Assembly: GCA_947589385.1 (NCBI GenBank)
Contig: CANPZW010000003.1
Location: 50,878 to 114,877 of the forward strand
DNA: 64,000 bases
Origin: an uncultured Clostridia bacterium
Lineage (GTDB): Bacteria; Bacillota; Clostridia; Christensenellales; Borkfalkiaceae
Reading direction: 5' to 3'
A program made the position numbers and the translations under genes. Positions 1,178 to 51,793 of the stretch are shown here, one piece after another. The notes under the pieces are model-generated. The model had not been told where the DNA came from, ran no database searches, and worked only from the letters and a program-made list of their open reading frames with translations. Positions within the stretch are counted from its first letter, which is position 1. Every line of letters starts with the position of its first letter.

Positions 1178-3279
1178 ATATCTTGGTGGCTGAACACAGC
1201 GGTTTTTGCAAGGGCGTGAAGTTTGCGGTAGATACCGCCATGACGATAGAAAATTCGAATACTTATGTTTTGGGCGAAATTATCCATAATGCCGACGTCG
1301 TAAAGGCGATAGCCGAAAGAGGGATAAAGGTCGTGCAAAGCCTCGGCGAAATCCCCGGCGGTGCTACCGTTATATTCCGTTCGCACGGAGTGCCGGAAAA
1401 TTTTTATTCGGAATGTGAAAGGCGCGGGATAAAGGTCGTGGACTGCACCTGCGGATTCGTAAAAAGGACGCAGAAAATAGTAAAAGAACAATATGCGCTC
1501 GGCAGGCAGATTGTGATAGTGGGTGAGCCGGGGCATCCCGAAGTAGAGGGCTTGACGGGTTGGTGTGATAAAAGCGCCGTTATTATAAACGACGAAAACA
1601 AAATTCCGCCCGAAATATCTTCAAAAGACCTTTCGGTGGTGTGCCAGACTACCTTTTCGGCTGAAAAATTTGAAAAAATAATAAAAAATATTAAAAAAGT
1701 CTGTGAAAAAACAGTTGCTGTTTTCAAGACGATTTGCTATACTACTATCGTACGGCAAAATGAAGTAGAGGAACTTTCGCAAAAGTGCGAAGCTATGCTT
1801 GTAATAGGCGGGCTGAACAGCAGCAACACCAACAAGCTTTACGAGCTGGCTTCAAAACATTGCGGGAACGTTTTCAGGCTTGCTTCTTCTGCCGATTTGG
1901 ATTTTTCCACATTAAAAAATTTTAAAAGTGTAGGTATTGCTTCGGGGGCGTCAACCCCGAATGCGCAAACCCGGGAGGTTCTCTTAAAGATGGCAGAAAA
2001 TACAGAAGGTAAGGCAACTAACACTATGGAAGAGGTAGTTGCTCAGATGGACAGCGAGCCGAAGCAGCCGTATAAGAAAGGTCAGATTGTGGTCGCGACT
2101 ATTTCTCAGGCAACGGACGAGGGATTGATGGTTCTTTTGCCCGGCGCGAAGAAAGAAATCGCTATAAGCAAGGAAGACCTTGACTGTGAAGAATACAACG
2201 CGGCGGATTACTTCGAAAAGATAGGCGATAATATCGATTTGCTTGTCGTCGAGCCCAGGCCTAACCTTAAACTTTCGCAGAAAATGATAAGACTGTTGCG
2301 GGAGGAGGAATCCAAGATTGCCGAAATTTCGGCGGGCAAGGAATTTACCGTAACCTGCACAGGCTTCAACAAGGGCGGTCTTGTAGCCGCTTTGGGAACC
2401 TATTCCGTATTTGTACCCGCAAAAGAAATCCGTCCGGGATTCGTAAAGGACCTTACAAAGTACGAGGGCAAGACTTTAAGGCTTCGCGCTTTGGAAATCA
2501 AGGATAAGGGCAGGAAAGAAATTATAGCTTCTCAGCGCGAAATTCTTCAAGAAGAGCGCGATGCGAGAGACGCGGCAAGAAAAGCTAAGGAAGATGAATT
2601 TTTCGCGAACATCGCAGAGGGCGACGTCGTTGAAGGCAAGGTTGAAAGAGCTACAAACTTCGGCGCTTTCGTTTCCGTAAACGGGTTCGATTGTCTTGCA
2701 CACATTTCCGATTTGGCATGGACGGGCGTGCGCAACGTGACCGACGTTCTTGAAATAGGCAAAACGTACCAATTCAAAGTTTTGAAAGTAGATGCCGAAA
2801 ACAGAAAGGTATCCATAGGCTATAAACAGCTTCAACCCCAGCCTTGGGACCTTGTGGCGGAAAAATATGCCGAGGGCGAAACCGTTCACGGCAAGGTCGT
2901 AAGAATTGTTCCTTTTGGAGCTTTCGTTGAAGTTGAAAAGGGAATCGACGGTCTTGTGCATGTTTCCCAGATAAGCAACGAGAGGATAGAAACTCCCGCG
3001 GCGGTTCTCAACGTCGGCGACGAAGTTGACGCCAAAATCGTTGCAATAGACCCTGTGGCAAGAAAGATGAATCTTTCCATAAAGGCATTATTGCCCGAGG
3101 GCGAAAGAAGAAAACCCCGCAGAACCGAAGGCGAAGACGGTGAAAAACCCGAACGCCGTTCCCGCGCACCCAGAAGGGCTAATGACGACGAGTTTTCCGA
3201 CTGGTCGGACAGCGGCAGCGGTTCGGTAGGAATTTCCATAGGCGATATCATTGCAAACGCCCAGAAAAACAACAAATAA
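1174..3279 (+). CDS. ispH: Bifunctional 4-hydroxy-3-methylbut-2-enyl diphosphate reductase (IspH/LytB) fused to ribosomal protein S1 repeats
   Basis: The N-terminal ~280 aa are IspH-like (GFCxGV, conserved Cys positions). The C-terminal ~400 aa carry repeated S1 domains (GxVxxxxxFGAFV). ATGA overlap with plsC. Confidence 0.9.
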   Translation: MNILVAEHSGFCKGVKFAVDTAMTIENSNTYVLGEIIHNADVVKAIAERGIKVVQSLGEIPGGATVIFRSHGVPENFYSECERRGIKVVDCTCGFVKRTQKIVKEQYALGRQIVIVGEPGHPEVEGLTGWCDKSAVIINDENKIPPEISSKDLSVVCQTTFSAEKFEKIIKNIKKVCEKTVAVFKTICYTTIVRQNEVEELSQKCEAMLVIGGLNSSNTNKLYELASKHCGNVFRLASSADLDFSTLKNFKSVGIASGASTPNAQTREVLLKMAENTEGKATNTMEEVVAQMDSEPKQPYKKGQIVVATISQATDEGLMVLLPGAKKEIAISKEDLDCEEYNAADYFEKIGDNIDLLVVEPRPNLKLSQKMIRLLREEESKIAEISAGKEFTVTCTGFNKGGLVAALGTYSVFVPAKEIRPGFVKDLTKYEGKTLRLRALEIKDKGRKEIIASQREILQEERDARDAARKAKEDEFFANIAEGDVVEGKVERATNFGAFVSVNGFDCLAHISDLAWTGVRNVTDVLEIGKTYQFKVLKVDAENRKVSIGYKQLQPQPWDLVAEKYAEGETVHGKVVRIVPFGAFVEVEKGIDGLVHVSQISNERIETPAAVLNVGDEVDAKIVAIDPVARKMNLSIKALLPEGERRKPRRTEGEDGEKPERRSRAPRRANDDEFSDWSDSGSGSVGISIGDIIANAQKNNK

Positions 3280-3297
3280 ACTTTATCGGTTAAATCG

Positions 3298-3328
3298 GAC
3301 TACGCGTGAAAACGCGTAGTCTTTTTTG
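3298..3328 (+). terminator. Intrinsic terminator of ispH/rpsA
   Basis: GACTACGCG-tgaaaa-CGCGTAGTC followed by TTTTTTG. Confidence 0.85.
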
Positions 3329-3402
3329 TGTTTTAGGTTATTTTGCGCTTTTCTTTCGCTTATTGAATGACCGTTGAATATGGGCGTTCATTGACCCTTT
3401 TT

Positions 3403-3718
3403 GTCATACCGAGGACTTTGTCCGAGAGTATCCCATTTCCCCAAACGGCCATACCGAGGGCGAATGCCCGAGCGTATCCCCATGGGCATAGCGGTAAAGC
3501 GAGGGGATTCCCTCGTCGCAAGCGTCTCGGAATGACGGGTTAAAGGGGGCGGTTCAATACCCCTTCTGTCATACCGAGGGCGCAGCCCGAGTGTATCCCT
3601 ATGGGCATAGCGGTAAAGCGAGGGGATTCCCTCGTCGCAAGCGGCTCGGAATGACGGGTTAAAGGGGGCGGCTCATTCACCACTTCGTCATACCGAAGGC
3701 GCAGCCCGAGCGTATCAC
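3403..3718 (+). repeat. Left array of a composite REP/MITE-like repeat (modules A-A-B-A-B-A; two full units with 120- and 119-bp periods)
   Basis: Module A is GTCATACCGAGGGCGnnGCCCGAGyGTATCCC (3403, 3448, 3568, 3687). Module B is GGGCATAGCGGTAAAGCGAGGGGATTCCCTCGTCGCAAGCGkCTCGGAATGAC (3484, 3602). B contains the hairpin CGAGGG-gatt-CCCTCG. The CTCGGAATGAC and GTCATACCGAG ends are near-inverted. Confidence 0.9.
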
Positions 3719-3729
3719 ATTTAAGAATG

Positions 3730-3762
3730 ACAAAAGCGGGGGCTGATAAAATCAGCCCCCGC
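3730..3762 (-). terminator. Intrinsic terminator, minus strand (end of pilin transcript)
   Basis: GCGGGGGCTGAT-ttt-ATCAGCCCCCGC followed by TTTTG on the minus strand, ~160 nt after the pilin stop. Confidence 0.7.
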
Positions 3763-3922
3763 CCGATGTCCAACCGTATCTTTACATCCCTGTCGGATAC
3801 GGATATGCAATGCGGCATACCCTTGCCAGTGATACCGCGTCGCTTTTTGATTAAATGGGCATTTCAGCCCGTTTTCTGCATCGTTTGTCCCGAACGTTGC
3901 GGAAAGTAATGGATTAATGAGG

Positions 3923-4372
3923 TTAGGGAGTAGGCATTTCAGGAATATCTGAAACACCTGTTTCAGTCAAGAGCAACGTGACCTTATAACTGCCATCCGG
4001 CTGCTTTTCCGCCTTACCTTCTGTTGTAAATCCTTCTTGGGTTGTTGTTTTAGCAGCAACACCATTTTCAACTGCTTTAACTTCCATATTGGAAAGCTCA
4101 CCGCTTTTGGAAGTTATAGCCGTCACAGTCCATGCCCTGATGTTATCCTTAGTGGGTTCAGCCCAAAGAGTTGCATCATTGGTTTTGTCAAGCAGATAAA
4201 CAACGGCTGCACCGCGGACGACACGTACATTGGCAGATTCAACATTCTTTTCTGCATTGCTTAAAGCTCCAACGAAAAGGGGAACCGCAATGGCGGTAAG
4301 TACGGCAATGATAGCTACAACTATCAGAAGTTCTGCAAGAGTGAAACCTTTCTTGCTTTTGAATTTTTGCAT
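3923..4372 (-). CDS. Type IV pilin / pseudopilin with prepilin-type N-terminal cleavage-methylation signal
   Basis: N-terminus is MQKFKSKKG|FTLAELLIVVAIIAVLTAIAVPLF, i.e. G/F cleavage site, Glu+5 and a hydrophobic helix. SD is AAAGGAG 9 nt upstream. Confidence 0.85.
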   Translation of the reverse strand: MQKFKSKKGFTLAELLIVVAIIAVLTAIAVPLFVGALSNAEKNVESANVRVVRGAAVVYLLDKTNDATLWAEPTKDNIRAWTVTAITSKSGELSNMEVKAVENGVAAKTTTQEGFTTEGKAEKQPDGSYKVTLLLTETGVSDIPEMPTP

Positions 4373-4403
4373 TGTTTTTTTACTCCTTTAAATCATGATT
4401 TTT

Positions 4404-4432
4404 TATATAATTACCGTGGGACGTAACGGCAA
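4404..4432 (-). promoter_or_regulatory. Possible resident sigma-A promoter of the pilin gene (TTGCCG-N17-TATATA)
   Basis: Hexamers with 17-nt spacing read on the minus strand, ~30 nt upstream of the pilin ATG. Confidence 0.4.
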
Positions 4433-4470
4433 AAATACCCCTTTTATGCCCCCTGGCAGGGCCTGGAAAA

Positions 4471-4499
4471 TGTTCATCTATTAGCATAATAGATGAACA
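4471..4499. repeat. IR-L: 29-bp dyad site TGTTCATCTATTA-GCA-TAATAGATGAACA
   Basis: Near-perfect palindrome with an asymmetric 3-nt centre. It is the exact reverse complement of the site at 4620-4648. Confidence 0.9.
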
Positions 4500-4578
4500 A
4501 AATTCCAAATCTGGAAAGGCAAAAACCTTGATTTTGGGAGAAAAATCGATAAAAAATAAAAAAATATCGTCAAAATGC

Positions 4579-4607
4579 TTGACGATAAATGGTAAAAATG
4601 TTATTGT
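4579..4607 (+). promoter_or_regulatory. Sigma-A-like promoter inside the IR-flanked segment (TTGACG-N17-TATTGT), firing rightward in this assembly
   Basis: Hexamers and 17-nt spacing read directly. No coding gene follows before a terminator. Confidence 0.5.
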
Positions 4608-4619
4608 ATATACAGAAAG

Positions 4620-4648
4620 TGTTCATCTATTATGCTAATAGATGAACA
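4620..4648. repeat. IR-R: 29-bp dyad site TGTTCATCTATTA-TGC-TAATAGATGAACA
   Basis: Identical arms to IR-L with the centre inverted (TGC vs GCA), so the two sites are in inverted orientation. Confidence 0.9.
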
Positions 4649-4651
4649 AAA

Positions 4652-4686
4652 TCGGCGGCAAATTTGTTGCCGATTTTTTGTTTTTT
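4652..4686 (+). terminator. Intrinsic terminator immediately right of IR-R
   Basis: CGGCAA-atttg-TTGCCG followed by ATTTTTTGTTTTTT. Confidence 0.7.
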
Positions 4687-4741
4687 ATGGGAATTTTTTG
4701 CGTTTTTTATATCAAAAACGCTATTTTTAGCCCATTATACA

Positions 4742-4950
4742 GGGGATACGCTCGGGCGCTTCGCCCTCGGTATGACGTAAGTAATGAACCGCTCATTTTT
4801 AACTGTCATTCCGAGCCGCTTGCGGCGAGGGAATCCCCCTGTTTTACCGTAACGCCATTGAAGATACACTCGGGCTTGCGCCCTCGGTATGACATAATAG
4901 AGAGAGCATTATGGAAAAAGTGGACACTCGGCTTCGCCCTCGGTAATAAC
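4742..4950 (-). repeat. Right array of the same composite repeat, inverted relative to 3403-3718
   Basis: Reverse complements of module A are at 4742-4776 and 4863-4893, with a degenerate copy at 4922-4950. The reverse complement of module B is at 4805-4849. Confidence 0.9.
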
Positions 4951-5053
4951 AAAAAAGGAATAGCGGGCTACGCCGAACCGCCTTGGTAGGAAAAAGGCTA
5001 TACATATTATAGAGAATTACGAAAATATTTCTTCGGGCGGTTTAATCTGCCTT

Positions 5054-5082
5054 TTGCGTGGGTATTAAATAACTGTTATAAA
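5054..5082 (+). promoter_or_regulatory. Candidate htpG promoter (TTGCGT-N17-TATAAA)
   Basis: Hexamers and spacing read directly, ~17 nt upstream of the htpG SD. Confidence 0.4.
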
Positions 5083-5098
5083 CATCGGAGGCATTAAA

Positions 5099-6973
5099 AT
5101 GCAAAAACAGGGGAACATAAAAATTTCAAGCGAAAACATGATGCCGATAATAAAAAAATGGCTGTATTCGGACAAGGATATATTCCTTCGCGAAATAGTG
5201 GCCAACGGCGTTGACGCTATTACCAAATATAAAAAGCTTGTGTCTATGAACGAAGCGCAAGAGGACGGTAACGGTTATTGGATTAAAATTTTCGTGGATA
5301 AAAAGGCTAAAACCTTGACGGTCGAGGACAACGGTATAGGAATGACCGCCGAAGAAGTGGAAAATTACATTACCCAAATAGCCTTTTCGGGCGCTTCCGA
5401 CTTCCTTGAAAAATACGAAAAGGCAGGCGGCGACGGAATTATAGGGCATTTCGGTTTGGGATTCTATTCGGTTTATATGGTTTCCGAAAATGTGGAAATA
5501 ATTACGAAATCCTATAAGGACGAGCCCGCCGTGCATTGGGAAAGCGACGGAAATTCAACTTATACCATAGAAGAATCGGATAAAGCCGAGCGCGGCACAA
5601 AGATAATAATGCACATTGCCGCGGAAGAAAAAGAATTTCTTGAAGAGGGCAACATAAAAAATCTTGTCAGAAAATATTGCTCTTTCATGCCATACAATAT
5701 TTATTTCAACTTCAAAGGCGACGGAAAGGACGAGCCGCTTAACACCACCGAACCTTTGTATATAAAAGCGCCCAAGGACTGCAAGGACGAGGATTACAAA
5801 AAATTCTATACCGACACTTTCATGGATTACAACGAGCCCATTTTCTGGGTTCACCTGAATATGGATTATCCTTTCAAAGTCAAGGGTATTTTATACTTCC
5901 CGAAAGTAAGGAATAAGTTGGAGCTTGAACGGGGAAAGGTCAAATTGTATTGTAACCAAGTGTTCATAGCGGACAACATAAAGGAAGTCATTCCCGAATT
6001 TTTAATGCTTCTGAACGGTGTTATCGACTGCCCCGACATTCCGCTTAACGTATCGCGCAGCTTCCTGCAAAACGATAAACAGGTGCAGAAGATAAGCAAG
6101 CATATAACCAAAAAGGTCGCGGACAAGCTTATATCTCTGTTCAAAACCGACAGACAGAAATTCGAAAGCTGTTGGGGCGATATAGCAAACTTTATCAAAT
6201 TCGGTTGCATAAAGGACAATGAATTTTACGATAAGGTCAAGGAAATCATTATATATAAGGATATAAACGGCAAATATCTGAGCTTGCCGGAACTTATGCC
6301 CGAAAATACCGCGGAGAAAACCGAAGAAGAAAATGAAACGGAAAGCCCCGAAAAATCCGAAGGCGAAACGAATGAAAATAAAGACGATAAGAAGGAAATA
6401 AAACCGAAAACGGTTTATTATGTATCTGACGAAGAACAGCAGGCGCAGTATATAAAACTTTTCAAAGACCAGAACCTCGACGCAATATCCTGCGACACCT
6501 TTATCGACCCGCATTTTTTAAGCTTCCTCGAATACAAAGCGCCCGATAAAATCAAGTTTATGCGCATAGACGCGGATATAGACGGGGCGCTGAAAGCCGA
6601 GGATAGCCAAAACGACGAAGTTATCATAGACATTTTTAAGAATGCTCTCGGCAACGATAAAATTACAATCAAGACAGAAAAACTGAAAAATTCCGAAGTC
6701 CCCGCTGTAATTGTCGTTGACGAATATATGAGAAGATACACAGAAATGGGTCAGTTTTACGGGATGAGCGACGGCGGACTGAACAAGACGGTAATCGTCA
6801 ACACCGCAAGCCCCGTAATAGAAAAGCTTAAACTTCTTGACGGCGACAAGCAGAAATTCGTGGCAGGTTACGTTTATTCGCTGGCGCTTGCTTCTTTCAA
6901 GAAACTTTCGCCCGACGAACAGGAAAAATTCAACGCCGACTGCGTAAAGCTTTTATCGGATTATGTTAAATAA
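5099..6973 (+). CDS. htpG: Molecular chaperone HtpG (Hsp90 family)
   Basis: GHKL ATPase motifs (REIVANGVDA, EDNGIGMT, GHFGLGFYS). Length is 624 aa. SD is GGAGG. Confidence 0.95.
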   Translation: MQKQGNIKISSENMMPIIKKWLYSDKDIFLREIVANGVDAITKYKKLVSMNEAQEDGNGYWIKIFVDKKAKTLTVEDNGIGMTAEEVENYITQIAFSGASDFLEKYEKAGGDGIIGHFGLGFYSVYMVSENVEIITKSYKDEPAVHWESDGNSTYTIEESDKAERGTKIIMHIAAEEKEFLEEGNIKNLVRKYCSFMPYNIYFNFKGDGKDEPLNTTEPLYIKAPKDCKDEDYKKFYTDTFMDYNEPIFWVHLNMDYPFKVKGILYFPKVRNKLELERGKVKLYCNQVFIADNIKEVIPEFLMLLNGVIDCPDIPLNVSRSFLQNDKQVQKISKHITKKVADKLISLFKTDRQKFESCWGDIANFIKFGCIKDNEFYDKVKEIIIYKDINGKYLSLPELMPENTAEKTEEENETESPEKSEGETNENKDDKKEIKPKTVYYVSDEEQQAQYIKLFKDQNLDAISCDTFIDPHFLSFLEYKAPDKIKFMRIDADIDGALKAEDSQNDEVIIDIFKNALGNDKITIKTEKLKNSEVPAVIVVDEYMRRYTEMGQFYGMSDGGLNKTVIVNTASPVIEKLKLLDGDKQKFVAGYVYSLALASFKKLSPDEQEKFNADCVKLLSDYVK

Positions 6974-16002: not shown

Positions 16003-17058
16003 GTGATGAGTGCAAATTATTACGTTGACAGGAACAATAAAAATCTTGAAACAATCGAACGGCTTTTGGACGAATCTCTCCCACCGTTTTGCGGCGATTA
16101 TTTTCTTGCGATTGACAGTCAGACTTCTACCCTCACGCGGTTGAATTACGCCCATGATTTGAAGATTTTTTTCTATTTTTTGCAGGAAAAAAAGTTCAGA
16201 AAATCAAAATTCGTAAAAGATTTTACCCTCGACGACATGGAAACCGTAACAAGCACAGACATCGAGTATTTTTTAAGCTATCTGTCGCACTACGTTTACG
16301 ACGGCAAGGAACATTCCTGCAACGACCGTGCAAAGGCGCGTAAGCTGTCTTCGGTCCGCGCCTTGTTCAAATTTTTATTCAACAAAGGCTATATTTCGGT
16401 TGATAATTCCGCAAAGGTTTCAACGCCTAAACTTCATGAGAAGCCGATAATTCGCCTTGACGGCGATGAAGTGTTCGGCATAATCGACGTGGCGGAAAGC
16501 GGCTGCGGGCTTACCACCCACCAAAAAGCTTACCATGAAAAAACACGCGTGCGCGACAGCGCCATTCTGACATTGTTTTTGGGAACGGGAATACGTATAA
16601 GCGAGCTTGTCGGGCTTAACAATGAGGATATAAATTTTAAGGATAATTCCTTTATCGTTACCCGCAAGGGCGGCGGAAAATCCATACTTTATTTTGACGA
16701 CGTAGTTGCGGAAGCCCTTAAACGCTATATGGAATATAAAGAAAACAACGCCGAAAATCTTTCTGAAACTACGGCGCTGTTCGTATCCAACAATAAAAAG
16801 AGAATCACTGTGCGCGCGGTAGAAAATCTTGTGCAGAAATACGCTAAAATCGTATCCCCACTCAAAAAAATTTCCCCGCATAAATTACGTTCAACCTACG
16901 GCACGCAACTTTATAAAGCGACTGGCGATATCTACATAGTCGCCGACGTGCTGGGGCACAAGGACGTAAACACCACCCGCAAGCATTACGCCGCAATCTC
17001 AGACGACAACCGGCGCGGCGTGGTCGGAAAAGTAAAATTGAAGCGCGACGACGATTGA
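16003..17058 (+). CDS. Tyrosine site-specific recombinase, XerS/XerC-like
   Basis: C-terminal catalytic residues (..ISPHKLRSTYGTQLY.., LGHKDVNTTRKHY), TRKGGGK, and an N-terminal SAM-like domain. At 351 aa, its length and motif layout resemble single-recombinase XerS. Confidence 0.85.
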   Translation: MMSANYYVDRNNKNLETIERLLDESLPPFCGDYFLAIDSQTSTLTRLNYAHDLKIFFYFLQEKKFRKSKFVKDFTLDDMETVTSTDIEYFLSYLSHYVYDGKEHSCNDRAKARKLSSVRALFKFLFNKGYISVDNSAKVSTPKLHEKPIIRLDGDEVFGIIDVAESGCGLTTHQKAYHEKTRVRDSAILTLFLGTGIRISELVGLNNEDINFKDNSFIVTRKGGGKSILYFDDVVAEALKRYMEYKENNAENLSETTALFVSNNKKRITVRAVENLVQKYAKIVSPLKKISPHKLRSTYGTQLYKATGDIYIVADVLGHKDVNTTRKHYAAISDDNRRGVVGKVKLKRDDD

Positions 17059-17329: not shown

Positions 17330-17358
17330 TAAAGTTACAGAAAAATTTGAGGAATTTT

Positions 17359-17946
17359 ATGAAAAGAATTGATAACGACGATAAAGTGTATCGATTTATC
17401 ACCGATTTTATAAATGCGCACGGCTACGCCCCCACCGTCCGCGAAATTTGTAAGGGTTGCGGAATAAAGTCCACAGCCACTCCCTATCAGATTATGAACA
17501 GGCTTGCCGAACGCGGTCTGATTAAAAAAACGGGCAACAGAAACCGCGCAGTTTCAATAGCTAACCAAGGACCAACCGTAAACGTTCCTCTTATAGGCAC
17601 GGTGGCTGCGGGCGAACCTATTTTCGCAAGCGAGAACTTTGAAGAGTTTTACTCTATCCCTGGAAACTTTTTCGAAGGCGAAGATTTATTTATGCTGAAC
17701 GTAAAAGGTACGTCGATGATAAATATCGGCATGCTGGACGGCGATAAAGTAATAGTAAAACGACAGGAAACCGCAAATAACGGCGATATTGTGGTTGCGC
17801 TTGTAGATGATTCCGCCACAGTCAAAAGGTTTTTTAAGCGGGGCGGAAAAATCGTTCTTCATCCTGAAAACGACGATATGGATGATTTTATATTCGATAA
17901 TGTACAAATTCTCGGTAAAGTCGTCGGCTTAATGAGAAACATTTAA
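17359..17946 (+). CDS. lexA: LexA repressor
   Basis: Winged-helix N-terminus (YAPTVREI), VPLIGTVAAGEPI cleavage region, and S24 motifs GTSM and GDIVVA..TVKR. ATG 17359 follows GAGGA; the track start 17347 is an upstream TTG. Confidence 0.93.
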   Translation: MKRIDNDDKVYRFITDFINAHGYAPTVREICKGCGIKSTATPYQIMNRLAERGLIKKTGNRNRAVSIANQGPTVNVPLIGTVAAGEPIFASENFEEFYSIPGNFFEGEDLFMLNVKGTSMINIGMLDGDKVIVKRQETANNGDIVVALVDDSATVKRFFKRGGKIVLHPENDDMDDFIFDNVQILGKVVGLMRNI

Positions 17947-49690: not shown

Positions 49691-51793
49691 TTAATTTTTG
49701 TGTACGCCCGCAAGCGCTTGGAGCGCCTCCTTTAACTCCTGCGGGCTGTTCATTACCTCTACCGCCGATTTATGAAAATACTCGTCATAGTAGAAAACTT
49801 TGTTATCGGTATCAAAAAATTCATATGCAGACGGAAATTTATCCTCCCGCGATTCGGCTGAAAAAATCCCGCTATCCGGAAGGTCGGCGCAATTTTCAAA
49901 AAGACAATTCCAGATTTTGACAAATGAATTTTCAAGCCGTAACGGCGAAATCCGGCAATCGCTAAAAAGACAATTTTCCATGAACGTGGAAGTTTTTACG
50001 CTTAAACAAAGCGGACTTTCATAATTATCCGCGGCAAGAAACAAATCGTTGTAAAGGTGCAGATTGATATTCCCTTCCGCCGAACTTACGGAGTTTTTGT
50101 AAATATTATGGTGCGACGTGAAAAATTCGGGCGAGCCGACGGCATTTTCAATTTTTTCCGCAAGACGACATTCAAAGATGTTATACGAAAGAGTAACAAA
50201 ATCTGCATTTTGAAAATGCAAAGCATAATTCTTTTCTGTATTTCCGTCTGCTTCGCCCATAAATTCGTTGTTATGAACCCATATGCGGGAATTTTCTCCT
50301 AAAAACCCGCATGCCGCGCTTTTATACCCCGAAAAAGTTAAATTTCTTATTTCCAGACTGCTGCAATCTTTGAATTTTAAATTGCCGACGATTTCGGCGT
50401 TATCGCCTAAGCCCTCGATAGTAATATCGCTTGCACCCGCCAAAGTCAGGTTTTCAACCGCAATTCTGCCTGTTATCCTGACGATTAGCGGAACTCCGTT
50501 AAACTTTTCCGCAGCTCTGAAAATATTTTCTATACCTTTATATACGCTTTTATCGATTTCGAGCTGAACGGAATTTTTTGTTGGTTCGGAAACATAAATA
50601 ATTTTTGAATTTTCTTTCGGCGTTCCGTCGGCGGAATATGCGCCGAAGCCATTGACCTTGTAATTGTAGTGCGCATAACCCGAACGGTCGAAAGAAGTTA
50701 CCGAAATTTCCGAAACTCCGGCAGACTTACCGCGGGCGAAGACCCTGACGTCGTAATTGCCCGCCGCAATCCCCAAAATATCTATGCGCACAAAATCGCC
50801 GCATAAACGTAATAATTCTTTGTCGGCCGCTTTCCATTCCGAAAGACTATCCGCACGGCGGTATTCGGCAGAATATTCGGAAATATCCGAATTCGGCAGA
50901 GCCGCGACCTCTACGAAAGCTCCTTCTTCATAGCCTGCGGAACGAAGAATTTTCAAGGTATCTTCTTCCTTTTTCTCCCATTTCGCATAGAGATTTAAAT
51001 CGCCGGAAAAAGTTTCGCTGATTTCAAGCAGTGCGTTGCCGTAAAATTTCTCATTATCAAACCAGCCGCAAAAGACATATCCGTCATAGACGGGAACGGG
51101 CAATTTAAGCACTTCGCCTTTGACGTATTCTATGGGGAAATCTCCTGCGAAAGCTCCGCCGTTCAAATTGTAGTTGATTTTAAATCTTTCGGCTTCGTCG
51201 GGAATGGTTATCCATTTGGCGTAAAAAATTTTGTCGCCCGAAGAATCTTCTGTAATTTCCGTAACTCTTTCGCCGTTAAATTCAATATTATCGTACCACC
51301 CGCCGAAAATATATCCGAATTTATAGGGCTCGGGCAGAACAACCTTTTTCCCGGCGGCGTAGCTTTCGGGAACTTCGCCGTCGATAGAACCGCCGTAGAG
51401 TATAAGAATAATTTTAAATATTTCGGGGGTCTTAGGCTCGGAAGTATCCTTTTCTTCCCATTTTGCCCAAAAAAACTTATCGCAGTTCGCGTATTCCCCT
51501 TCGAGTATTATATACTTTGCCCCGTCGAAATCAGCATTGTCATACCAGCCCCCGAAATTATATCCCTCTCTTTCGGGAACGGGAAGTTCCACGCTTTCGC
51601 CGGCATAAAATTCTTTGGGAAACTCGCCTTGAAATGAGCCGCCGTTTAAGTAGAACGTTATACTGTATTTTGTCTGTTGCTGCGGTCCGCCTGCGCCGTT
51701 ATCCTTGTCGGGATTATAACACGCACTGCCGAAAATCAAAAATACCGCCGCAAAAGCCGCAAAAAATTTGAAAACCGAACTGCGGAACTTCAT
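49691..51793 (-). CDS. Lipoprotein with three Listeria-Bacteroides (InlB B-repeat/Flg_new-type) repeats and a C-terminal beta-helix-like region
   Basis: Lipobox is IFGSAC. Three copies of the ~70-aa unit (..Y.I.F.LNGG....P..Y..G..V.LP.P.R.GY.F.GW(Y/F)DN..F.G..). The C-terminal ~330 aa have repetitive N/G-turn beta-helix character. Confidence 0.75.
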   Translation of the reverse strand: MKFRSSVFKFFAAFAAVFLIFGSACYNPDKDNGAGGPQQQTKYSITFYLNGGSFQGEFPKEFYAGESVELPVPEREGYNFGGWYDNADFDGAKYIILEGEYANCDKFFWAKWEEKDTSEPKTPEIFKIILILYGGSIDGEVPESYAAGKKVVLPEPYKFGYIFGGWYDNIEFNGERVTEITEDSSGDKIFYAKWITIPDEAERFKINYNLNGGAFAGDFPIEYVKGEVLKLPVPVYDGYVFCGWFDNEKFYGNALLEISETFSGDLNLYAKWEKKEEDTLKILRSAGYEEGAFVEVAALPNSDISEYSAEYRRADSLSEWKAADKELLRLCGDFVRIDILGIAAGNYDVRVFARGKSAGVSEISVTSFDRSGYAHYNYKVNGFGAYSADGTPKENSKIIYVSEPTKNSVQLEIDKSVYKGIENIFRAAEKFNGVPLIVRITGRIAVENLTLAGASDITIEGLGDNAEIVGNLKFKDCSSLEIRNLTFSGYKSAACGFLGENSRIWVHNNEFMGEADGNTEKNYALHFQNADFVTLSYNIFECRLAEKIENAVGSPEFFTSHHNIYKNSVSSAEGNINLHLYNDLFLAADNYESPLCLSVKTSTFMENCLFSDCRISPLRLENSFVKIWNCLFENCADLPDSGIFSAESREDKFPSAYEFFDTDNKVFYYDEYFHKSAVEVMNSPQELKEALQALAGVHKN

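Follow-up and report, generated by a model that had tools for sequence, protein, structure and literature searches.

Does a short promoter segment beside an orphan pilin gene in an uncultured gut bacterium represent an invertible switch, and what would such a switch control? The question is raised by a 64-kb stretch of Clostridia DNA (contig CANPZW010000003.1, positions 50,878 to 114,877, GenBank assembly GCA_947589385.1), hereafter the window. A first-pass annotation, made from the letters alone, had proposed that two inverted 29-bp sites enclose a flippable 120-bp promoter segment next to a type IV pilin-like gene. We estimate the probability that this cassette is a functional invertible promoter (i.e. 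a phase-variation switch) at roughly 75%. The inversion reading is supported by comparison with sequences of other loci and is unproven for the window locus itself. Invertible promoters are an established means of surface variation in gut bacteria, and to our knowledge the characterised ones are almost all from Bacteroidota, Enterobacteria and Clostridioides difficile.

Paired sites and the promoter between them

The two sites, TGTTCATCTATTA-GCA-TAATAGATGAACA at 4471-4499 and TGTTCATCTATTA-TGC-TAATAGATGAACA at 4620-4648, proved to be exact reverse complements, as annotated (29/29 positions, central GCA/TGC, 120 bp apart). With up to three mismatches allowed, the 64 kb contain no further match, and none of 100 dinucleotide-preserving shuffles of the window yielded any match (chance expectation 0). 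Nor does the window contain a longer inverted repeat with partners within 600 bp; the remaining ones of at least 16 nt are local hairpins or shorter imperfect pairs. The left, pilin-proximal predicted recombination site can be divided into the 11-bp arm TGTTCATCTAT, the 7-bp spacer TAGCATA and the 11-bp arm ATAGATGAACA; the spacer of the right predicted site, TATGCTA, is the reverse complement of the left one.

The predicted invertible segment bounded by both sites (4500-4619, 120 bp) is rich in A-tracts. It carries a sigma-70-type promoter, TTGACG-N17-TATTGT at 4579-4607 on the plus strand, which faces away from the pilin gene just as had been noted, and is in addition preceded by TG at the -10 hexamer. 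The end of this hexamer lies 12 nt before the right site. A feature unmentioned in the first-pass annotation is an intrinsic terminator located right after the right repeat (4648-4687, plus strand; stem 4648-4677, then a T run). It abuts the repeat on the strand read by the promoter and would end the OFF-state transcript. The promoter and the terminator are both consensus predictions, and their assignment in the window is based on sequence.

The transcript predicted from the 4579-4607 promoter would be about 70 nt long, from near 4614 to near 4687, with two adjoining hairpins (-30.3 kcal/mol). It can be asked whether a small RNA of this length, comprised of hairpins 4620-4648 and 4648-4677, is the real product of the promoter, with the left palindrome serving as its target or decoy in the pilin leader. 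The good folding of the promoter-hairpin-terminator unit is in line with this explanation, as is the same promoter-site-terminator order in two of the loci described below (L009 and L003). We nevertheless consider it very unlikely, because no Rfam family was found at E <= 1 in a search of 3000-6000, except for two sub-threshold chance hits, and because outward transcripts of the two sites would bear identical and not complementary loops. Moreover, at sister loci the unit is flipped toward a long surface-protein gene, the terminator-facing arrangement being one of two states. A small RNA would be compatible with a switch without replacing it, and would leave the second site and the flipped states unaccounted for.

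Occurrence of the site motif at other loci

The 29-mer with a free central triplet was scanned for in 185,579 species-representative genomes and in the JGI metagenome collection, as well as in viral contigs. The genome and metagenome collections disclosed only three other public loci (L001, L002, and L003), and the viral contigs gave no match. Each of the three recurrences is accompanied by a diverged partner site, with the strongest promoter match between the two. The motif TGTTCATCTAT-TANNNTA-ATAGATGAACA in other gut Clostridia is always paired, with a promoter in between, and the centre-to-centre spacing of sites is 137-167 bp across loci. In L001, a Christensenella metagenome-assembled genome (MAG), the neighbour is a long membrane protein and the promoter points toward its gene. 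In the Eubacteriales MAG L002 and in the metagenome contig L003, a 312-aa tyrosine recombinase is encoded directly before the pair and the promoter is directed toward it; the pair in L003 is followed by a 1,105-aa Big_2 surface protein.

The first-pass annotation had named as an alternative a repressor operator that would recur singly upstream of many unrelated genes. This scenario is removed, as the 29-mer recurs only in pairs. A pair of repressor operators was rejected as well, given that the motif is limited to three other loci in the two collections, each with a partner site, and that the site centres covary within pairs.

For a comparison of spacers, left sites were aligned with their reverse-complemented partners. 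In every one of the nine locus types, the 7 bp at the centre of one site are the reverse complement of those in the other, and this is so despite divergence of the arms at some loci. Among loci, the spacer is TAGCATA in the window, TATACTA in L001, TAGTGTA in L002 and L003, TATAGTA in the locus P0127 (L021), TACTATA in the locus P0221 (both presented in the next section), TAGGTTG in the pilin loci L006/L039, and TAAATTG in L009. At loci with diverged arms, the block of perfect identity between partners is 15 nt in L003, 11 nt in the P0221 locus, 9 nt in L001, and 7 bp, exactly the spacer, in L002. This pattern favours the 7-bp spacer as the putative strand-exchange (overlap) region of a tyrosine recombinase, free in sequence and obligatorily matched between partners. 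The first-pass annotation had left the choice between a hix-like and a tyrosine-type site. Spacer covariation, the shared block shrinking to the spacer, and adjacent tyrosine recombinases are better explained by an 11-7-11 site than by a hix-like core of 2 bp. A Hin/hix-type serine invertase was accordingly rejected: no Resolvase-domain protein was found among the scanned open reading frames (ORFs) of the window, enzymes at sister loci are of the tyrosine type, and the shared block is 7 bp instead of 2 bp.

In each of the nine locus types, the promoter match with the highest score falls within the segment, near one site. L009 has a terminator equivalent to that of the window outside the site nearer to the promoter, and L001 has one on the side away from the gene. 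No similarity exists between the inner segments of different loci, and this bears on another explanation, that the cassette is a remnant of a miniature inverted-repeat transposable element (MITE) with 29-bp terminal inverted repeats, carrying an outward promoter by chance. Terminal inverted repeats around a unit of ~180 bp, in a neighbourhood rich in MITE-like repeats and repeats of the repetitive extragenic palindromic (REP) type, would conform to such an origin. It is, however, extremely unlikely in view of the unrelated inner segments, the lack of target-site duplication at the ends of the window cassette, and the distribution of the motif, which is found at three loci only in the genome and metagenome collections, in no viral contig, and as a single pair in 64 kb.

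The region just upstream of the L001 switch (3742-6060) looks, judging from translations only, like a diversity-generating retroelement module. Its parts are an ORF similar to reverse transcriptases (3742-4833), another that resembles a helical bundle protein of the Avd type (4674-5354), and a stretch rich in Asn and similar to a template repeat (5817-6059). The downstream protein controlled by the L001 switch (DUF6273) could be the target of this module.

Inversion at sister loci and linked recombinases

A tyrosine recombinase of 305-312 aa (Phage_int_SAM_3 and Phage_integrase domains) directly adjoins the site pair at the L002, L003, P0127, and P0221 loci. The family of the L003 enzyme exceeds 6,900 proteins at E <= 1e-40, most of those listed being 305-312 aa long, and its source names include Clostridia, Christensenellales, and Anaeroplasma. 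The closest solved structure to the linked recombinase is that of the Tn1549 integrase (6EN0, E = 2e-15).

Sites of the P0127 locus correspond to the window's own motif (TGTTCATCTATTA-TAG-TAATAGATGA and TTCATCTATTA-CTA-TAATAGATGAACA) and are positioned between the recombinase gene and a gene for a surface protein of 3,700-4,000 aa. The 141-bp inner segment has one orientation in six contigs. In another contig (L027) it is inverted, matching as the reverse complement in 135 of 141 positions, while the flanks are identical in 1000/1000 positions upstream and 549/550 downstream; one more contig (L029) breaks off inside the inverted junction. The P0221 locus has sites of a related motif, and its 134-bp inner segment is found in one orientation in four contigs and as the exact reverse complement (134/134) in five, between identical flanks. 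Exchanged and unexchanged parts confine the crossover at this locus to an 11-nt block which holds the 7-bp spacer. With the flip, a TG-extended promoter at both loci switches from the strand facing the recombinase to the strand facing the gene. What had been proposed as an invertible switch is thus substantiated for this type of site, through its pairing beside tyrosine recombinases and the flips at the P0127 and P0221 loci, while no inversion was seen at the window locus.

Two further observations concern these loci. Of these loci, only P0221 (L030-L036, 320-2082) has a large serine recombinase nearby (Resolvase, Recombinase, and Zn_ribbon domains), just upstream of the tyrosine invertase and together with a TnpW-like ORF, and the unit of switch and adhesin may be carried by a mobile element. 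In a Hadza-gut contig (L028, ~3455-3562), the left site of the P0127 locus with a single-nucleotide polymorphism in the spacer, TTTTAGTAA, continues into unrelated sequence where the inner segment would normally follow. This junction could represent a third recombination partner, in a shufflon-like manner, or a strain rearrangement.

Recombinases in the window

Pfam scans were made for the pilin, the gene at 16003, and the unassigned window ORFs of at least 110 aa, and several other genes were covered by precomputed hits on syntenic contigs. They bear out that the only recombinase in the window is the Xer-like tyrosine recombinase at 16003-17058, located beside lexA (17347-17946). By implication, the first-pass annotation had offered this gene as the source of the flipping enzyme. 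Its uniqueness in the window favours this role, and so does the ability of tyrosine recombinases to act in trans, exemplified by RecV of C. difficile (PMC5903667). We regard it as quite unlikely all the same, since the protein is only 24% identical to the switch-adjacent recombinases, over 170 aa, and differs from them in the N-terminal domain (SAM_1 vs SAM_3). Its features follow a housekeeping pattern: the best NCBIfam match is XerS, below cut-off, and homologues have 80-100% identity in all 120 clusters listed, some of them on hundreds of contigs. Considering also its position beside lexA, the 16003 gene is probably the lineage's housekeeping dimer-resolution enzyme.

The sites in the window were also considered as Xer/dif sites. 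This candidate was rejected, as there are two copies, inverted around a promoter and 149 bp apart, and as homologous pairs front surface-protein genes and flip.

The pilin gene, its leader and other pilin loci

The orphan type IV pilin-like gene (3923-4372, minus strand, ATG at 4372) encodes 149 aa with the prepilin N-terminal methylation motif (PF07963). Downstream of it, an intrinsic terminator at 3734-3764 (minus strand) has a 14-pair stem with 9 G-C pairs, continued by a T-rich tail. Its description as an orphan holds: type IV pilus machinery was absent from the window in a tblastn search with the machinery proteins of L007, and the pilin as query had no match other than itself, so there is no second pilin.

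The pilin leader (4373-4470, minus strand) contains a hairpin at 4412-4430, the palindrome AAATCATGATTT at 4390-4401, and the ribosome-binding site AAGGAG at 4383-4388. Alignment of six pilin loci revealed compensatory changes in three stem pairs of the hairpin. The stem is 6-7 bp long and has the conserved loop YCRTCCCR, followed by ATATAAAAAATCATGATTT, which includes the palindrome, and then by the ribosome-binding site. The conserved part of the leader (4373-4440 in the window, minus strand) is also found 5' of pilin ATGs in L004, L006, L007, L009, and L039, even before an operon pilin that has no switch. It has no Rfam match, and may represent an RNA element involved in stability, processing or regulation.

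In a sister strain, represented in two samples, the pilin is 82% identical to that of the window, within the same synteny and with the same sites. The inner segment is conserved in 114 of 120 positions, in the same orientation. Among more distant orphan pilins, L006, L039, and L040 have one switch in common, while L009 has a related one, and the common switch of L006 and L039 fronts different pilins. The site of the L006 and L009 types, (G)TACATAGAA-N7-TTCTATGTAC (CATAGAA-N7-TTCTATG), differs from the window motif and has a 10-7-10 or 11-7-11 layout. Spacers in these switches are inverted and matching, and sites are separated by 132-138 bp. Their inner promoters, with consensus scores of 12/12 in L006 and 11/12 in L009, both point away from the pilin. 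Pilins inside pilus operons (L007 and L041) have no such repeats. The assembly GCA_947598585 holds both kinds, a switch-less operon pilin (L041) and a switch-bearing orphan pilin (L009).

Contig breaks just before the ATG of the pilin P0011 (L010-L012) were set aside as evidence of inversion. They occur ~113 nt beyond the site, within the leader common to pilin paralogues, and a repeat-induced break is therefore a simpler reading.

Orientation at the window locus

Three independent SPAdes metagenome contigs (L013, L014, and L016) that carry exactly the HtpG of the window begin at position 4618, i.e. with AG followed by the right site. The exact HtpG of this strain is present in the samples behind ERZ27249206, ERZ27249211, and ERZ27249221 and in the runs ERR10663674-77. 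In the sister strain, assemblies of the same accession series and of similar coverage extend across a repeat structure that is identical. The repeat alone does not force a break, and sequence heterogeneity left of 4618 is therefore likely. These breaks are suggestive only as evidence of inversion, and a strain variant explains them equally well; they could be caused by an inversion mixture, a strain variant or a third recombination partner.

Several observations weigh against a switch that operates in the window. All three assemblies that span the locus (the window, L004, and L005) have the same orientation and the opposite one was not found, nor did the predicted flipped junction have a match in the viral-contig scan. 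The breaks described above are at 4618, 2 nt from position 4620, where a pure inversion mixture should branch. The promoter faces away from the pilin in 7/7 pilin-linked contigs, which represent three locus types. A tblastn search with the switch-linked recombinase family found no member in the 64 kb, and the enzyme of the window switch would consequently have to act in trans from outside. Finally, the pilin may also be transcribed from a fixed promoter at 4404-4432, and the switch would then modulate its expression instead of gating it. This promoter, already suggested in the first-pass annotation, does exist as a sequence, TTGCCG(4427-4432)-N17-TATATA(4404-4409), but it was not listed by the promoter scan and it overlaps the conserved leader hairpin. 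The conserved leader structure suggests that the leader is transcribed, and the fixed promoter is by this weakened, though not eliminated.

An alternative to the switch is a pair of static regulatory palindromes, either operators of a dimeric DNA-binding protein or a locked switch devoid of its recombinase, which would bracket a fixed promoter with nothing inverting at this locus. Near-perfect dyad sites are expected of operators, and the single orientation in all seven pilin-linked contigs and the lack of a cognate recombinase in the window agree with this explanation. Nevertheless, we find it unlikely. The motif demonstrably flanks segments seen in both orientations, and the conserved neighbour at sister loci is a recombinase and not a transcription factor. 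The spacer varies among loci and yet matches its inverted partner, which would be needless for an operator. In addition, the promoter as oriented in the window reads only into a terminator.

Genomic surroundings of the cassette

The window is ordinary chromosome, with cmk, plsC, ispH-S1, the pilin gene, htpG, a glycogen operon, and the Xer-like recombinase beside lexA, as well as dnaE, tRNA synthetases, uvrC, mutS2, and pta-ackA. The glgD/glgA/glgP-like, pfkA-like, and dnaE-like ORFs were identified from translations alone.

REP/MITE-like repeats of ~100 nt at 3500-3716 and 4738-4950 flank the pilin-plus-switch cassette in inverted orientation (94 nt, 80%). Their motifs are GTCATACCGAGGGCG..CCCGAG.GTATCCCC and GGGGATTCCCTCG.CGCAAGCG.CTCGGAATGAC, and pilin genes of L004-L007 and L039 have similar ones beside them. 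At the window locus, public assemblies end within these flanking repeats: contigs carrying IspH-S1 stop near 3642 and never reach the switch, and four Logan contigs carrying HtpG stop in the REP-like repeats near 4865.

The protein encoded at 49691-51793 (minus strand) is 700 aa long and contains Listeria-Bacteroides repeats (Flg_new) as well as a beta-helix, the domain class of the giant adhesins that are controlled by switches elsewhere. No inverted-repeat pair is present upstream of its gene within the window.

Proposed switch and its significance

In the scheme that we propose, a tyrosine recombinase whose gene lies at another place in the genome would flip the 120-bp promoter cassette, with each 29-bp site providing two 11-bp recombinase-binding arms around the 7-bp strand-exchange spacer TA-GCA-TA. 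Because the spacers of the two sites are mutually inverted, recombination would invert the segment and would not delete it. In the assembled orientation (OFF), the 4579-4607 promoter would read through the right site straight into the terminator, giving a short insulated transcript. Recombination inside the TA-GCA-TA spacers would bring the promoter to ~12 nt from the left site. In the predicted ON state, it would read the left site and the conserved leader of ~100 nt and continue into the pilin gene, with a 5' untranslated region of ~133 nt. Predicted junctions of the inverted state are CTGGAAAA-site-CTTTCTGT and GGAATTT-site-AAATCGG. We infer that the window copy flips, that a SAM_3-type member of the recombinase family is encoded outside the window, and that the flip controls pilin transcription.

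Switch-bearing orphan pilins are a recurring theme. As a tentative extension, which we consider possible but well short of probable, each of the orphan type IV pilin genes dispersed over the chromosomes of these uncultured gut Clostridia would stand behind its own insulated invertible promoter, the operon pilin having none, and a trans-acting tyrosine invertase of the ~309-aa family would flip these promoters. A cell would in this way pick an alternative subunit for one pilus machine, while giant adhesins would likewise be gated by sites of this loxP-like family. This subunit-choice reading fits the pilin pair of GCA_947598585 (L041/L009), the common switch of L006/L039, and the divergence of pilin and switch between sister strains, where the pilin changes fast in comparison with the preserved switch segment. 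If it is true, a Gram-positive type IV pilus would undergo phase and antigenic variation through promoter inversion, much as capsules are switched in Bacteroides.

The switch type as such is already well known, while its placement before a pilin in gut Clostridia appears to be new; no report of promoter inversion before type IV pilins in Clostridia was found in the literature. The regulated cargo would be extended to orphan type IV pilins, and variation in pilus composition or expression in the gut becomes testable. A very large family of tyrosine recombinases of ~309 aa, from uncultured gut Clostridia, is linked to the sites, with flips visible in public assemblies. The grammar of the sites (arms of 11 bp, a 7-bp spacer that is free in sequence but has to match that of the partner, centres ~150 bp apart, and a promoter close to one of the two) could be used for annotating such switches from sequence alone.

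Comparison with known systems

Inversion that governs type IV pilin expression is known from Moraxella, where Piv, a DEDD-type recombinase, inverts ~2 kb of pilin coding sequence and thus swaps alleles; in the window, only a promoter cassette would flip. Sites of Xer recombinases share with those described here 11-bp arms, a spacer of 6-8 bp, and the use of tyrosine recombinases, and an Xer-like gene is present in the window. However, dif occurs once, close to the terminus of replication, whereas here two inverted sites surround a promoter, and homologous pairs precede surface-protein genes elsewhere. The architecture also resembles Cre/loxP and Flp/FRT in its symmetric arms, in the short asymmetric spacer which sets inversion vs excision, and in the need for matching partner spacers. 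In loxP and FRT it is 13-8-13, compared to 11-7-11 here with asymmetry in the central 3 nt only, and the proteins are not close.

Functionally, the closest systems are fimS/FimBE and clostridial tyrosine-recombinase invertons. The RecV switches of C. difficile (cwpV, flgB, cmrRST; Cdi1-7) are likewise short intergenic invertible elements in a clostridial host, served by a tyrosine recombinase. The cwpV and flgB switches act after transcription initiation and not through movement of a promoter. RecV can be encoded far from the switches it flips, and most repeat pairs of C. difficile switches are mutually unrelated (PMC5903667). In gut Clostridia, the read-verified inverton group 139 of the hCom2 study is associated with the tyrosine invertase group 35, a tyrosine-type recombinase being located within 5 kb; from the coordinates of the examples, repeats would be 14-26 nt long and inner segments ~205-230 bp, and the main text of that study does not mention pilin or pili (PMC11892184). 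By this description, group 139 is a possible counterpart of the TGTTCATCTAT-N7 family.

With fimS of Escherichia coli and its recombinases FimB/FimE, the candidate switch would share a short invertible promoter segment of a major-subunit gene of a pilus or fimbria, ON and OFF states, and tyrosine recombinases, and at sister loci also the adjacent recombinase gene, as in fimB/fimE. fimS is 314 bp long, with 9-bp repeats and accessory IHF/Lrp sites. The window instead has a 120-bp segment between 29-bp loxP-like dyads, of the kind linked to ~309-aa SAM_3 recombinases, none of which is encoded nearby. The gene that would be controlled here encodes a type IV pilin, and that controlled by fimS a chaperone-usher fimbrial subunit.

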